IMG/VR virus record: IMGVR_UViG_3300045988_076504
Location: 1 to 64,000 of that record
From: a virus
DNA: 64,000 bases
Reading direction: 5' to 3' (one strand)
Shown here piece after piece: positions 3,062 to 33,426 of the stretch (positions are counted from its first letter, which is position 1; every line of letters starts with the position of its first letter). Below the pieces are notes generated by a model. That model had not been told where the DNA came from. It made no database searches and saw nothing but the letters and a program-made list of their open reading frames with translations. A program made the position numbers and the translations under genes.

Positions 3062-3087
3062 ATTGTTACAATTAGTTTACAAAAGTG

Positions 3088-3156
3088 TTAGACTATTAGG
3101 ATTCGAACCTAAAATAACAGATAAGTCTGACGTGTTACCAGTTACACTATAGTCTA
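3088..3156 (-). ncRNA. tRNA-like gene (paralogue of the nearby tRNA-Gln) with a collapsed anticodon loop; possibly a pseudo-tRNA
   Basis: The minus strand reads TAGACTA TA GTGT AACTGGTA ACAC G TCAGA CTTA TCTGT TATT TTAGG TTCGAAT CCTAA TAGTCTA A. Acceptor, D arm and T arm are perfect. The D arm, anticodon stem and variable loop are nearly identical to tRNA-Gln at 3789-3860. The anticodon loop is only 4 nt (CTTA) and pair 27:43 is T:T. Confidence 0.6.
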
Positions 3157-3297
3157 AATAAGGCCAGTTCTCAAGCTGGAAATCTCAAACAGAACGACAA
3201 GGACTTTCACCTTATACACCTTTCGGTATGGTTAAATAACCACATGTCTATATTTCACCACGTTCCTCGATTTACTTCCTTACATTTAAAATATTAG

Positions 3298-3426
3298 TTC
3301 CAAACAGGGAATCGAACCCTTATCGATACATGTCTCGACAAATCACCATCCACATAATTCACTTCCACGACGTCAATGCATGTGCCGCTTAAATGAATAG
3401 GTTTGCTATGCGGTAGATTATTTGGA
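3298..3426 (-). ncRNA. 129-nt element ending in a tRNA-type T-arm and 7-bp acceptor-like helix; not a canonical tRNA
   Basis: The minus-strand 3' end reads AGGG TTCGATT CCCT GTTTGGA. GTTTGGA can pair with TCCAAAT (3426-3420) located 128 nt upstream. No canonical D or anticodon arm could be folded between them. Confidence 0.3.
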
Positions 3427-3715
3427 CCCGCGTCTCTCCGCGTGTCATACGTATGGATTAACTGTTCAACATTCACCGCTATCGGCTATAACCTTGCGCT
3501 AGATTATAACGTAGTCGGAGTTTACAGGCTTACAACTGTCACAATGGCTGTTTTAATTAATCACATGTAAACGAGCAGTTTTGAGGACATGCTCAGGTCC
3601 CTACAGACAGTTTATACTCGTGATGGAGTTGACATTATGAATACCAAATGTCGTTTGTAATAATGAAGAATAATGTATGCATATTTATTTAGATTTAGTG
3701 AATAATCTTATAAAA

Positions 3716-3743
3716 ACTATGCTATTTTCACGAACCGCATAGT
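3716..3743 (-). repeat. conserved-loop hairpin, copy 1
   Basis: Plus strand ACTATGC-TATTTTCACGAACC-GCATAGT: 7-bp stem and 14-nt loop. On the minus strand it is followed by TTTTTAT. Confidence 0.75.
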
Positions 3744-3788
3744 AAAAACATATGGAAATATACCTACATGTCTAATAAAATGTAAGCG

Positions 3789-3860
3789 TCAGGCTGTCAG
3801 GACTCGAACCTGAAATAACAGAACCAAAATCTGTTGTGTTCCCAATTACACTACAACCCG
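3789..3860 (-). tRNA. tRNA-Gln (anticodon UUG)
   Basis: Minus strand: CGGGTTG TA GTGT AATTGGGA ACAC A ACAGA TTTTGGT TCTGT TATT TCAGG TTCGAGT CCTGA CAGCCTG A. This is a 72-nt cloverleaf with all arms paired (two G:U pairs in the acceptor). Anticodon positions 34-36 are TTG. CCA is not encoded. Confidence 0.85.
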
Positions 3861-3862
3861 TA

Positions 3863-3894
3863 ATATACATCTATTTTCACAAACCGATGTATAT
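3863..3894 (-). repeat. conserved-loop hairpin, copy 2 (2 nt upstream of the tRNA-Gln 5' end)
   Basis: Plus strand ATATACATC-TATTTTCACAAACC-GATGTATAT: 9-bp stem and 14-nt loop. Confidence 0.75.
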
Positions 3895-3929
3895 ATAATG
3901 TTTAACATCTAAAATATATAATGGCTCCT

Positions 3930-3980
3930 AATCCGACACTACTGTGTTTCGTCTTAATTTTCAAAGACTCATCAGGGATT
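3930..3980 (-). ncRNA. hammerhead self-cleaving ribozyme (stem I open, stems II and III capped)
   Basis: Minus strand: AATCC CTGATGA GTCTT-TGAAAATT-AAGAC GAA ACAC-AGTA-GTGT C / GGATT. All core residues are present: C3-U4-G5-A6-U7-G8-A9, the G10.1:C11.1 pair, G12-A13-A14, the A15.1:U16.1 pair and C17. Stem I is 5 bp, stem II 5 bp, stem III 4 bp. The predicted cut is after C17, between plus coordinates 3935 and 3934. Confidence 0.85.
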
Positions 3981-3983
3981 TTT

Positions 3984-4015
3984 AAATACACCTATTCTCA
4001 CGAACCAGTGTATTT
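3984..4015 (-). repeat. conserved-loop hairpin, copy 3 (between the stop of gene 4029-4343 and the hammerhead)
   Basis: Plus strand AAATACAC-cTATTCTCACGAACCa-GTGTATTT: 8-bp stem, with the same loop core carrying one substitution. Confidence 0.75.
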
Positions 4016-4028
4016 TTACCAACTATGT

Positions 4029-4343
4029 CTATGGTTTCTTATGTGTTATGTCGTCAATTTTTTGACAGGATAGCCAAAAGTCTACCCCATCGTCAGATTC
4101 ATCAAAACCATCTCCTGTATTGTCTACTTGGTTGATGTAGACCTTTACGGCGATTGTTCTAAACTCTTCATAAGCATCAATTATTTGCTGTTGATGCTCA
4201 ACTTTTTTTTCGAGGGCTGTTACCTCGCTCTCTGAAGTACATCCAGAAAGAATCGCTGTTAACCACATTAGTACGAATACTAATATGATTGTGCTTAGAG
4301 GAATCCATGTTTCCGTCCAAGCTTCTTTGTCGTCTTTGTCCAT
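4029..4343 (-). CDS. membrane-anchored hypothetical protein
   Basis: 104 aa with one TM segment (LSTIILVFVLMWLTAILSG). It ends on TAG, used here as a stop. Confidence 0.6.
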   Translation of the reverse strand: MDKDDKEAWTETWIPLSTIILVFVLMWLTAILSGCTSESEVTALEKKVEHQQQIIDAYEEFRTIAVKVYINQVDNTGDGFDESDDGVDFWLSCQKIDDITHKKP

Positions 4344-9707: not shown

Positions 9708-10103
9708 TTATTTCTTTATAAAAGTTGCGTATATACATTTTGCAGCCCATCCTACTAAATAGGCATCTGCTTCTTGTGAATCTACTGTTGTAGGCAATCC
9801 TATATCTTCAAAGATCGATTGTTTTACATGTTCTGCTTCATGACAGATATCTGATATATAATCCGCAGTGTTTTTACGTTTATAACCCATACAAACTAAG
9901 ATTACCCATTGTTTGGTCTTCTTATCGAGCGCATAGAAAGTAAATGTTTTACTTGAAGGATCCCATATATCTGATATTTCTGAACCATCTCTGGTTGTAA
10001 AACGATCTCGTAAATCTTTCAGCGTACAATTCTTACAACAATACAGTAATCTTGGATATATTATAGGATCATACTTATCGATTATCTTCTTTTGCTTCTT
10101 CAT
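9708..10103 (-). CDS. small HExxH protein (putative zinc metallopeptidase-like)
   Basis: 131 aa containing ICHEAEHVKQ (HEAEH). Confidence 0.6.
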   Translation of the reverse strand: MKKQKKIIDKYDPIIYPRLLYCCKNCTLKDLRDRFTTRDGSEISDIWDPSSKTFTFYALDKKTKQWVILVCMGYKRKNTADYISDICHEAEHVKQSIFEDIGLPTTVDSQEADAYLVGWAAKCIYATFIKK

Positions 10104-10698: not shown

Positions 10699-11103
10699 AT
10701 GAACGAAACATTGATAGTAACAAAGCCGTACTGCTGGATGGAGCCTGGCGATACATTCAAGCTCTCCAAAGACGGCAATTCGTATGTGAATACTCATACA
10801 CACGAGTATACAAATACAGACAAAGATATGGATATTACAAGTAGATCTGAAACAACATGTTCTATTTCAAAAGACATCGCTACAAGTTTGCTTAACGTTG
10901 GTATCTTGAAAGAAGATAAAACTGAAACATCGTTTGTAAATGTGTTCGATCGAATTGACGAAATGATAGACACTTATAATGAGGATCTTAAAAATATCGA
11001 TAAAGATACAGAGGATTTCCCACAATGCATGAAAGTTGAAAAGGAAACAGTATTGAGAAATTTGATCAAAGTGTTGTCTTATTTAAAAACGCTTAAGAAG
11101 TAA
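10699..11103 (+). CDS. hypothetical protein
   Basis: The ORF-track start 10633 is TTG and lies inside the hairpin region. The first ATG is at 10699 (MNETLIVTKPYCWMEPGD...). Stop is TAA. Confidence 0.6.
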   Translation: MNETLIVTKPYCWMEPGDTFKLSKDGNSYVNTHTHEYTNTDKDMDITSRSETTCSISKDIATSLLNVGILKEDKTETSFVNVFDRIDEMIDTYNEDLKNIDKDTEDFPQCMKVEKETVLRNLIKVLSYLKTLKK

Positions 11104-12070: not shown

Positions 12071-12074
12071 GATT

Positions 12075-12374
12075 ATGAATACTAAGAAAACAAAGAAAAA
12101 TGCTAACGTTACTATTACAGTAAAGTTGTTAAATATTACAGATCCCACAGATGCGTATAAACTGTTTGCTATTGCAAAGTTTAATAATATGCGCGATGCG
12201 GAAAAGGATATTATATCTAAGACCATTATAGATCTTTATTTCAATACGCTAACGTATGAGATAAATTCAGCTCTTGCTGATATGGACGTGGAAGCTGCGA
12301 ACGCTCATAAAGTTCGCGAAAAGAAACCAAATATCTTTAAGAGATTCTGGAATTGGATTACACGTAAAAAGTAA
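12075..12374 (+). CDS. hypothetical basic protein
   Basis: 99-aa ATG-to-TAA ORF. Confidence 0.65.
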   Translation: MNTKKTKKNANVTITVKLLNITDPTDAYKLFAIAKFNNMRDAEKDIISKTIIDLYFNTLTYEINSALADMDVEAANAHKVREKKPNIFKRFWNWITRKK

Positions 12375-12554: not shown

Positions 12555-13457
12555 ATGGAAAATAAAATATATAAACTCTCAGACGAACAGTTTGTTGAGT
12601 TACTCAAGAAAAGTTCAACAATATCTGAAGTATTGTTTAAACTTGGTTATACAGTTAAAGGAAACTCTTGGGGATATTCTCAAATAAAAAGAAGAATGGA
12701 TGATCTGAATTTAGACCATTCTATATTCAAGGGGAAATCCGCTATTATAAAAACTACCAAGCTAAACAATGTAAAGAAAGAAGATATACTAAAAGAAAAT
12801 TGTAAGCATCAACGTACAGTATTAAGAAGATACATAATCAAAAACAACTTGATACCCTATAAGTGTGCAATATGTGGATGCACCGAATGGCAAGGGAAAA
12901 CGTTAAGTTTGGAACTTGACCATATAAACGGAATAAATAATGACAATAGATTAGAAAACCTTAGATTTTTATGTCCTAATTGCCATAGTCAAACATCAAC
13001 ATATGGAAGCAGAAATCAACAGCTTAATAGTTCTGAATATGATATATCAGACGACTTGAGAAAGATGGTTGAAGAGAAATACGACGAAGTTAAAAGTGTT
13101 AAAAAGGTATCGTCTATACTTGGAATACGAAGGTGTGTTGTTACGAAAATAGTTAACGAGTCTGGTCAAAAACATTCTAATCAGAAATATATAATAAGGT
13201 ATGATAAAGATTGGAATGAACTTGCAAGATATGGTTCTCTCGTAGAAGCTGCCAAGGCTTTGATAGAGGCTGATGAAGTTAAAACCAATAGAGTAAAGAC
13301 CTGCACTAGAACTATAATGTACAATAAAGATAATTTTTGGTTGGACAGTCATTGGAAAATATTGGATGGTAGCGGGATAATAAATAATCCGTTATTAGAA
13401 CCTTCTCTAATTGACTCGGAAGACACTGTTGACGAGGCGCAAGCGAAAGCAGCGTGA
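12555..13457 (+). CDS. HNH homing endonuclease
   Basis: 300 aa containing CAICGC...ELDHINGINNDNRLENLRFLCPNCHSQT (HNH/His-Me finger). Stop is TGA and there is no internal TAG. Confidence 0.85.
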   Translation: MENKIYKLSDEQFVELLKKSSTISEVLFKLGYTVKGNSWGYSQIKRRMDDLNLDHSIFKGKSAIIKTTKLNNVKKEDILKENCKHQRTVLRRYIIKNNLIPYKCAICGCTEWQGKTLSLELDHINGINNDNRLENLRFLCPNCHSQTSTYGSRNQQLNSSEYDISDDLRKMVEEKYDEVKSVKKVSSILGIRRCVVTKIVNESGQKHSNQKYIIRYDKDWNELARYGSLVEAAKALIEADEVKTNRVKTCTRTIMYNKDNFWLDSHWKILDGSGIINNPLLEPSLIDSEDTVDEAQAKAA

Positions 13458-32332: not shown

Positions 32333-33426
32333 AATTTTTAGATTTAAACGGTTTAAATACCCTTAAAAGTTATATAAAGAATACCTACGCTAAAAAGCCA
32401 ACAATTATAACGCTGTCACAAATCGATACTTGTGGATATGAAAGTGCTTGGGATCTTGCTCAAGCTGCTAAAAATTCAGAAACAGGTTTAGTGTTCTATG
32501 TTAGCGATATGTATTCTACACTTTATGTATTTGGTGAAAATCCTATACATGGCTGTGTACAAGTACTAGTTGGCAATTGTGTGATGGACACAAGCGATTC
32601 CTCTATCAGTGTAGCACACAAAGATGGAATTTCTGCAACATATGTCAGAACATATCTTCACAAACCTGCCGCAATATATAATAAAGATGCAGGTTTTGAT
32701 AGTACAACACAAGAATGGTCAGCGTGGATCATTAGAGAAACAAACGTTGCTACGAAAACCGGAACTGTCGCTAATAATATTAACGCAATTAAACAATCTC
32801 TTGGTGATTTGTTATCGGTCGGTGTTGGAACAAATGTTGACAAAAATAAGCTTACACTCGGCTCGATGTATACAGGAGGCCTTTTAAAAGCACCCGGTAC
32901 ATTAATCGATAAAGAAATTCCAGAAGCAAGTCAGACATGTAACGGTCTGATGTCAGTTGCTGATAAAATCAAACTTGACGGTTTGAGTGATGGTGGTAGC
33001 AGCACTGTAACAGATCCTACAAGCGTTGCAAAGATTGTAAGGTTTGACAGTGTTGTTACAGGAGATGTTACTATCGCAGCAGGATCTATAACAAGCGATA
33101 ATTGTGTTTTAGTATATCTTAAAGATAAGAACATATTTGCAATAAAAGATTAGGATAACGATACATATTATAATAACGGAGGTATTATCTTAAACGACAA
33201 TCCTGGAGTATGGGTATCGTCAGATAATTTCTCAGGACTTATTCCAAATTTTGAAGCAGGGTATAAAGCGATTCCGAATGCTATTTATGTCGACAAAGAT
33301 TATAAAATGTATGTTGGCGGTGTTATAAATAATTTGAAAGGTGGTGGTAAGTTCTGCCAGGCACTTAACGTAATAAACGTAATGAACATCCCAATAGATG
33401 AAATAAATACAACAGAAACTGAATAA
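32329..33426 (+). CDS. tail fibre / receptor-binding protein paralogue 1, TAG-recoded
   Basis: The N-terminus is MKFLDLNGLNTLKSYIKNTY. It contains NGLMSVADKIKLDGL. It continues through the TAG at 33151 to TAA 33424-33426. Confidence 0.65.

Follow-up and report, generated by a model that had tools for sequence, protein, structure and literature searches.

An apparently uncatalogued RNA hairpin with a conserved apex beside genes, tRNAs and ribozymes of crAss-like phages

Three hairpins lie close together on the minus strand of IMG/VR virus record IMGVR_UViG_3300045988_076504, of which we analysed positions 1 to 64,000 (hereafter the window). Their stems are unrelated in sequence, their apical 14 nucleotides (nt) are nearly the same, and the strand on which they fold also carries a transfer RNA (tRNA) gene and a hammerhead ribozyme among them. 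Why would the apex of a hairpin be held so constant on stems that vary freely, and what might such a hairpin do beside a gene end, a tRNA and a ribozyme? A sequence-only reading had placed the hairpins at 3716–3743 (copy 1), 3863–3894 (copy 2) and 3984–4015 (copy 3), coordinates and sequences that are borne out here, and had described them as sharing one 14-nt loop. We describe the structure, strand, covariation, positions and distribution of this hairpin in the window and in related phages, and weigh the roles that it may have.

A folded apex on variable stems

The 14 nt are indeed shared, but they do not form an open loop. Read as minus-strand RNA they fold into a G•A mismatch, a G·U wobble, two U-A pairs and a pyrimidine-purine (Y-R) pair, capped by a GUGA tetraloop; the plus strand folds less well, and the G·U becomes A•C there. 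Copy 3 (minus strand, RNA AAAUACACU-G-GUUC-GUGA-GAAU-A-GGUGUAUUU) has a basal stem of 9 base pairs (bp), including a closing U·G, followed by the G•A mismatch, an apical helix of 4 bp and the tetraloop, which is closed by C-G (minimum free energy, MFE, -12.8 kcal/mol, z -5.6; covariance model 45.7 bits, E 5.8e-10). In copy 2 (minus strand, RNA AUAUACAUC-G-GUUU-GUGA-AAAU-A-GAUGUAUAU) the tetraloop-closing pair is U-A in place of C-G, a compensated change (MFE -10.5 kcal/mol; 41.1 bits, E 1.1e-8). Copy 1 (minus strand, RNA ACUAUGC-G-GUUC-GUGA-AAAU-A-GCAUAGU), with a basal stem of 7 bp, has a C•A mismatch at this position (MFE -8.1 kcal/mol; 37.8 bits, E 9.7e-8).

The consensus is a stem of 6–9 bp enclosing YGGUNN-GUGA-N'N'AUAG. 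From the base upward, the free-sequence stem is followed by a Y-G closing pair, the 1x1 G•A mismatch, the G·U wobble, a U-A pair, two covarying Watson-Crick pairs and the GUGA (GNRA) tetraloop, making 12–14 stacked pairs in all with the mismatch included. The alignment (A1) and the covariance model (R1) comprise 91 unique hairpins, three of which are the window copies and match by construction. RNAalifold on A1 returns the identical structure, with double changes in 9 of 11 pairs, and 91% of the alignment cells are paired against 36–49% when the partner column is slid, a comparison in which stems of at least 5 bp were pre-selected. R1 also picks up rare members that deviate: the loop may be a pentaloop (GUGAA or GUGAU) or read GCGA, GAGA or GGGA, the G•A mismatch may be replaced by C•C, C•A or U•C, and the G·U wobble by A•C or A-U. 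Since stems of at least 5 bp and the G..U/U..A frame were conditions for entry into A1, it is the counts of core variants in the databases that carry the argument.

For each core variant we took the share of matches lying inside a directly adjoining stem of at least 6 bp. Figures from the core scans of viral contigs and of genome collections are proportions among the matches listed, not totals, and the comparison set, one genome per bacterial or archaeal species, was scanned once and shallowly. The canonical core GGTTCGTGAGAATA is stem-flanked in 105 of 138 viral-contig matches, by stems that differ from copy to copy, and in 4 of 120 matches in bacterial and archaeal genomes. With both variable pairs swapped in compensated fashion (GGTCTGTGAAGATA), 48 of 112 matches are flanked, by 41 distinct stems; with the swap on the 5' side only (GGTCTGTGAGAATA) or on the 3' side only (GGTTCGTGAAGATA), the count is 0 of 120 in each case. 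Judged by sequence covariation, these proportions show the inner four pairs to be a real helix. Changing G·U to G-C (GGTTCGTGAGAACA) or GUGA to GAAA (GGTTCGAAAGAATA) again leaves 0 of 120 flanked, changing G·U to A-U (GATTCGTGAGAATA) leaves 2 of 120, and changing G•A to G-C (GGTTCGTGAGAATC) leaves 7 of 120. Since the wobble and GUGA are kept despite alternatives that are more stable or equally so, selection would appear to act on recognition by some factor and not on stability.

The earlier proposal of a specific, selected recognition-type element agrees with these results, in which compensated changes of the apex are kept and the G-C and GAAA substitutions never occur within a hairpin among the matches listed. 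We reject both the open 14-nt loop and a pseudoknot partner, which the same reading had offered as one such element, since these nucleotides pair with one another and covariation at two of the four inner pairs is seen in the alignment as well as in the database.

Within the window the motif is confined to one place. The degenerate 14-mer TATTYTCACRAACC has three exact matches, all inside 300 nt; allowing up to 2 mismatches gives 7 matches against 2.5 expected, and the other four, with 1–2 mismatches, are at chance level and have no flanking stem. Searched over the 64 kb, R1 finds these three copies only. Its next match (32651–32668, E 0.24) consists of the core without a stem and was rejected as a fourth site, and the degenerate relative that had been suggested at 3251–3269 is not detected by the covariance model at E<=10 and likewise has no flanking stem. 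The window's single non-coding RNA island holds all three copies.

Settings in the window and in related phages

In the direction of transcription, copy 3 comes first. It begins 14 nt past the stop of the upstream open reading frame (ORF; 4029–4343, minus strand, 104 amino acids, no Pfam domain), and so lies within the 3' untranslated region of that ORF, and it ends 3 nt ahead of stem I of the hammerhead, in keeping with the adjacency claimed from the sequence. The hammerhead is of type I with an open stem I (3930–3980, minus strand). Its matches to Hammerhead_3 (26.6 bits, E 0.004) and to the RAGATH-1 hammerhead (23.8 bits) are both below the Rfam gathering thresholds, and its pairing was read from the sequence: stem I AAUCC/GGAUU, CUGAUGAG, stem II UCUU..AAGA, CGAAAC and stem III CAC-AGUA-GUG, with a cut predicted after C3935. 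Copies 3 and 2 flank it. The 5' end of tRNA-Gln (anticodon UUG; 3788–3860, minus strand; ARAGORN, Rfam tRNA 59 bits) sits 2 nt (UA) past the end of copy 2, the spacing first reported, and an RNase P site is expected there. Copy 1 lies 44 nt 3' of the 3' end of the tRNA and is followed by UUUUAUAAGAUUAUU. Its U/A-rich tail (3701–3715, minus strand, UUUU A U AAGAUUAUU) is a weak U-tract, with five consecutive U counting the last U of the stem and five T among the first 8 nt. Such a run (UUUUAU) follows copy 1 alone, as had been noticed, and copies 2 and 3 have no U-tract. A generic terminator scan requiring at least 3 G-C pairs and a loop of 3–8 nt did not call copy 1.

Position counts in relatives are based on 92 unique hairpins in viral contigs, taken from the matches listed. 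Twenty of them end no more than 15 nt 5' of a same-strand tRNA (2–13 nt, one overlapping, with a mode of 2–4 nt), across linkers that are A/U-rich and mostly end in U; the apex is 9–16 nt from the tRNA 5' end. None of the 92 lies less than 19 nt from a tRNA 3' end, and a tRNA within 100 nt is on the same strand for 23 hairpins and on the opposite strand for 0. Hairpins outside ORFs of at least 80 amino acids number 83 of the 92; the upstream ORF is on the same strand in 66 of these 83, often 13–60 nt away, and 49 hairpins have same-strand ORFs on both sides. Among the 72 copies that do not adjoin a tRNA, the next 8 nt include at least five T in 35 and at least four in 53 (background T 0.31). 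The independent set with compensated cores behaves in the same way: 12 of its 41 hairpins lie 2–11 nt before a tRNA, six of them tRNA-Glu, and 22 of the 29 copies away from tRNAs have at least five T in the next 8 nt. As half to three quarters of the copies away from tRNAs have a U-tract, in sense orientation and shortly past a gene, terminator duty would appear to be one normal setting of the hairpin family. The earlier view that the element is something other than a plain terminator is right for copies 2 and 3, which cannot be terminators, but not for the family as a whole, in which a U-tract is common, nor for copy 1, which is terminator-like.

Ribozymes recur beside the motif as well. A hatchet ribozyme (81.8 bits) lies 12 nt past one hairpin (locus L038), and in another locus (L308) a RAGATH-1 hammerhead (69.2 bits) is bracketed by two motif hairpins, as the hammerhead in the window is. 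Some RNA islands hold many copies: L050 has seven in 2.2 kb among eight tRNAs, and L059 has seven in 1.3 kb.

These islands have further contents of their own. The hatchet ribozyme and a transfer-messenger RNA (tmRNA, 47.8 bits), at 13016–13099 and 13597–14158 of L038, form an island shared with two motif hairpins. Rfam identifies a permuted tmRNA in L043 (69.1 bits), and ARAGORN calls permuted tmRNAs in L043 and L108. Directly 3' of two motif hairpins of L059, at about 10700–10745 and at 9835–9880 (minus strand), stands UUUUGAAAGA..GGACGAAAGUCCUAUCAAGAUAUUU, a C(GAAA)G hairpin.

The sequence-only reading had staked its proposal on the motif recurring in related genomes, and it is present there, being widespread among crAss-like phages of the gut. 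The window belongs to a crAss-like phage; its hammerhead core is 93–98% identical in the Suoliviridae phages cr273_1, cr272_1 and cr131_1 (an additional A gives CUGAAUGAG in cr273_1), and the hairpin recurs, on a different stem, in cr273_1 and cr272_1. Those carriers that can be placed are crAss-like, placement being mostly indirect: Suoliviridae, csAssE-Sib (151 kb) and IAS virus relatives, and further a weak relative of cr116_1. The cultured phage crAss001 (Steigviridae, host Bacteroides intestinalis) has one copy at 1878–1909, about 5 nt before a tRNA-Glu, and the Prevotella megaphage Lak-C1 has a variant with a U•C mismatch. Neither phi14:2, a marine crAss-like phage of Cellulophaga, nor B40-8, a phage of Bacteroides fragilis, was found to carry the motif; in B40-8 a match of 25 bits proved to be a different, fully paired long hairpin that contains GGTTCGTG. 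Six bacterial matches have a flanking stem of at least 5 bp among the matches listed. They lie on contigs of gut metagenome-assembled genomes assigned to Bacteroidales, Prevotella, Parabacteroides or Lachnospiraceae, one contig being unidentified, and one adjoins an integrase; the remaining bacterial and archaeal core matches listed are mostly chance.

Before other tRNAs this position is taken by different hairpins. In crAss001, unrelated hairpins end 5–7 nt upstream of the other spaced tRNAs. Defining a spaced tRNA as one with at least 40 nt of upstream spacer and a leader hairpin as one ending 0–9 nt from the tRNA 5' end (viral loci L004–L1078), we find leader hairpins at 42% of the motif-free spaced tRNAs in carrier contigs and at 34% of those in unrelated viral contigs. 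Several of these are more distantly akin to the motif, having …CUU-GUGA-AAG… and a C•C or U•C. We found no description of tRNA leader hairpins in phage tRNA clusters in the literature searched.

Three observations concern individual carriers and their kin. In cr273_1 (L001) a second repeated hairpin, GCUCG-GAAU(U)AGA-CGAGC as read on the minus strand, occurs at 3065–3082 and 3309–3325; one copy stands just 5' of the hammerhead, the place of copy 3 in the window, and its loop has GAAUAG in common with the 3' half of the motif. In L049, which otherwise resembles the crAss-like IAS virus, about 170 nt directly 3' of a tRNA-Gln (12071–12240) are ~95% identical to the Prevotella megaphages Lak-C1 and Lak-A1 and match no Rfam family. 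In crAss001 about 900 nt without annotated genes (95964–96870, or 45964–46870 of L245) adjoin a gene for a TROVE (Ro60-like) protein, and a Y-RNA-like partner might be encoded there.

A proposed boundary hairpin and its alternatives

We give roughly even odds (a probability of about 0.5) to the reading that the motif is a cis-acting boundary, or 'punctuation', hairpin in polycistronic phage RNA, its apex being read by a trans-acting factor; termination, protection, insulation and factor binding are the roles that we infer for it. The hairpin would act in the RNA of the transcribed (minus) strand, where a coding region or spacer ends and immediately before a device that makes an RNA end. Where a U-tract follows, the device would be intrinsic termination and the hairpin the terminator stem (copy 1, weakly, and most copies away from tRNAs in relatives). 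Where a tRNA follows, it would be a leader or insulator hairpin before the RNase P site (copy 2, and typically at 2–11 nt in relatives), and where a self-cleaving ribozyme follows, an insulator (copy 3, and beside the hatchet and the RAGATH-1 hammerhead elsewhere). Once terminated or cut, the upstream RNA would be left with a stable 3'-terminal hairpin, and the downstream tRNA or ribozyme would be shielded from mispairing with upstream sequence. The apex itself may be a docking surface for a factor of the phage or its Bacteroidales host, either a protein that binds RNA or a ribonuclease; given the two substitutions that are never hairpin-borne among the matches listed, it does not seem to be conserved for stability and is most likely read by some such factor.

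Several points weigh against this reading. Termination, protection and insulation are deduced from position, and the collection scans behind the position counts give proportions in place of totals. The stretch of crAss001 examined has 23 annotated tRNAs and a single copy of the motif; its other spaced tRNAs have unrelated hairpins, so the motif is not required for tRNA maturation. Hairpins near tRNA 5' ends are common across phages in any case (34–42% of spaced tRNAs). Within tRNA arrays the upstream RNA is mere spacer, which weakens the idea of 3'-end protection in these arrays, and copy 1, given A/U-rich stems and 4–5 U, would be a weak terminator. Finally, Pfam searches of 20 ORFs near the island return ThyX, dUTPase, HNH and domains of unknown function only, with no RNA-related domains and no candidate binding protein among them.

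The same constraint on the apex would be expected if it recruited a specific endoribonuclease, phage-encoded or supplied by the Bacteroidales host, which would cut the hairpin internally or at its base and so separate mRNAs, tRNAs and ribozymes, by analogy with Cas6/Csy4, which cuts at the repeat hairpin, or with RNase III, which cuts at T7 intergenic hairpins. Such a processing signal would account for an apex whose sequence and geometry are constrained beyond the needs of stability, and for hairpins that stand between units needing separation and punctuate RNA islands as densely as in L059 and L050. We nevertheless judge it unlikely, because the 9–16 nt between apex and tRNA are too variable for a ruler-type nuclease to make the tRNA end, leaving RNase P still needed, because 12–14 bp is short for bacterial RNase III, and because the U-tract found on many copies would be superfluous at a pure cleavage site; nor does any nuclease candidate appear among the 20 neighbouring ORFs (Pfam). 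A little less likely again, in our estimation, is a site of the boxB/nut or RAT type on nascent RNA, where a phage factor on the GNRA-capped apex would switch termination on or off and thereby time read-through into tRNAs and downstream genes. Many copies per region are unlike the one or two promoter-proximal sites of nut-type systems, and copies 2–11 nt before a tRNA have no U-tract to regulate; this sets limits to what can be made of the GNRA fold, of the GUGAA and GUGAU pentaloops that recall the GNRA-like pentaloops of boxB, of an apex as conserved as protein recognition would demand, and of the many terminator-like copies between co-directional genes (the 49 with same-strand ORFs on both sides). 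No boxA-like companion was noticed, although no search for boxA or an N-like protein was made, and the 20 neighbouring ORFs again hold no candidate protein by Pfam.

One might also suppose an ordinary stable terminator or insulator hairpin with no trans-acting partner, a fast-folding cap spread by descent and recombination. The U-tract after many copies fits this, as do the unrelated hairpins that fill the same place before other tRNAs in crAss001 and many other phages. It is improbable all the same, for descent by itself does not account for wholly different basal stems beneath an identical apex; G•A and G·U, which destabilise, persist, with a G-C pair at the wobble and a GAAA loop never hairpin-borne among the matches listed; and the variable pairs change in compensated fashion only. 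The least likely of the alternatives, and in our view a very improbable one, is a DNA hairpin extruded from single-stranded or supercoiled DNA, which might be the promoter of a virion RNA polymerase as in N4, a site of replication or recombination, or the target of a nuclease. CrAss-like phages do have a virion RNA polymerase (by record annotation), as N4 does, and the spacing from apex to tRNA start is fairly narrow (9–16 nt). That spacing is nonetheless not fixed, and the motif is absent from phi14:2, the phage whose record annotates virion polymerase subunits from proteomics. The low rank follows chiefly from the strand-specific structure, the sense strand pairing well and the template strand turning G·U into C•A, and from the many copies just past a stop codon with a T-run next, which is terminator geometry and not that of a promoter. 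The single-stranded DNA element entertained in the earlier reading is disfavoured likewise: G·U and G•A make the structure strand-specific, and neighbouring tRNAs match its strand by 23 to 0.

Beyond a boundary hairpin as such, it is possible, though we hold it tentatively, that gut crAss-like phages and at least one Lak megaphage have a dedicated RNA punctuation system with its own apex-reading protein or ribonuclease. This reader, a phage product or one peculiar to Bacteroidales, would set, cleave or shield the termini of mRNAs, tRNAs and ribozymes within polycistronic transcripts, and the system might be likened to Cas6-repeat or histone stem-loop/SLBP recognition as their bacterial-virus counterpart.

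Known elements and neighbouring features

The motif has some of the marks of several known elements. Like an intrinsic terminator, it is a sense-strand hairpin shortly past a stop codon, often with a U-tract next; unlike one, it has a fixed apex with a conserved mismatch and wobble, its stems are A/U-rich, and 20 of 92 and 12 of 41 copies abut a tRNA without a U-tract, others abutting a ribozyme. The intercistronic C(UUCG)G hairpins of phage T4 and the RNase III hairpins of T7 are phage-specific intergenic families that mark or stabilise the ends of units in polycistronic transcripts. Ours is likewise a phage family of intergenic RNA hairpins with a common sequence feature and would work in a similar way, but what its members share is a module of 16 nt at the apex (YGGUNN-GUGA-NNAUAG), G•A and G·U included. 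Compared with a classical RNase III site, its helix is too short: a bacterial site needs about two turns (~20 bp), and the 12–14 stacked pairs here include a mismatch, so we rejected that identity. In lambda and P22, boxB (nut) is a short hairpin capped by a GNRA-type loop with a conserved apex, promoter-proximal and acting with boxA and an N-type protein. The motif resembles it in having a GNRA-like loop on a short stem (GUGA, with rare GUGAA and GUGAU pentaloops), an analogy by which it is probably read by a protein; it differs in its many copies, placed at gene ends and before tRNAs, and in its variable basal stems.

Two comparisons bear on the place beside the ribozyme. The 5' hairpin of the RAGATH-1 hammerhead (RF03152) likewise lies a few nt 5' of stem I, and the Rfam model aligns there to copy 3. 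We rejected this identity, the window scoring 23.8 bits against a gathering threshold of 56.3; moreover, the L308 match keeps its own 5' hairpin with the motif hairpins lying outside it, and the motif is mostly free of hammerheads. RiboJ, a synthetic insulator, combines a ribozyme with a hairpin; it too has a stable hairpin beside a self-cleaving ribozyme that keeps flanking sequence from disturbing folding, whereas the present hairpin is natural, has a conserved apex and also occurs before tRNAs and as a terminator stem.

Other identities were tried and set aside. The T-arm has as its hallmark a 7-nt T-loop (UUCRANY) closed by G53-C61; a T-arm or tRNA-like minihelix mimic shares GGUUCG with the motif, but the C61 position is G or A here, and the Watson-Crick covariation of positions 13/20 and 14/19 does not allow a T-loop. 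An N4-type promoter is a template-strand hairpin with a stem of 5–7 bp and a 3-nt loop at a fixed distance from +1; in the motif the sense strand is better paired, a 4-bp apical helix carries a 4-nt loop, and the distance is 9–16 nt. A CRISPR repeat or solitary repeat decoy does not fit stems that differ in nearly every copy (93 unique hairpins, and 41 stems in the replicate). The sarcin-ricin loop and domain IV of the signal recognition particle (SRP) RNA mismatch in their non-canonical strands, and there is no Rfam match to SRP or rRNA.

No family in Rfam 15 covers the hairpins of the window island or of L050 even at E<=10, and the core sequence occurs in no paper searchable by sequence text. 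A study of tRNA-linked theta ribozymes in gut phages (PMC10879173) describes no such hairpin, and the text of the 224-motif (RAGATH) paper (PMC5737381) mentions none. We would class the element as an apparently uncatalogued phage hairpin of the boundary or terminator kind, with an apical module of recognition grade.

The hairpin is readily recognised, and several crAss-like lineages, the cultured crAss001 among them, have it at probable transcript boundaries. CrAss-like phages are among the most abundant human gut viruses, and their transcript ending and processing are largely unknown. In annotation the hairpin may help to mark where transcription units end and where non-coding RNA islands lie. 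Given the natural scan of the wobble and of GUGA, it could also be bait for a new RNA-binding or RNA-processing factor, and it might find use as an insulator or terminator part in engineered Bacteroides and their phages. Were it merely a favoured terminator cap, its value would be mostly for annotation.

The window has other features of interest. For the plus-strand genes between about 15 kb and 64 kb, ORF coverage is 62%; reading TAG as sense raises it to 80%, and reading TGA so raises it only to 66%, which suggests that the late genes are recoded at TAG; no tRNA with a CUA anticodon was found in the 64 kb. At 3297–3457 (minus strand) there is a T-arm and an acceptor-like 3' end (GGGUUCGAUUCCC ... 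GUUUGGA), which ARAGORN at a relaxed setting models, as weak evidence, as a tRNA with a 65-nt insertion, and Rfam finds similarly long 'tRNAs' (98–155 nt) in L054, L059 and L004. The 290 nt upstream of this element (3458–3715) are non-coding. At about 3088–3156 (minus strand) a tRNA-like gene scores 56.3 bits with Rfam tRNA and has a 6-nt anticodon loop, ACUUAU; ARAGORN calls it at a relaxed threshold only, as tRNA-?(Lys|Stop)(tt). This odd tRNA with a 6-nt loop recurs in three other loci, L004 (1531–1602), L054 (4411–4482) and L060 (1368–1439).

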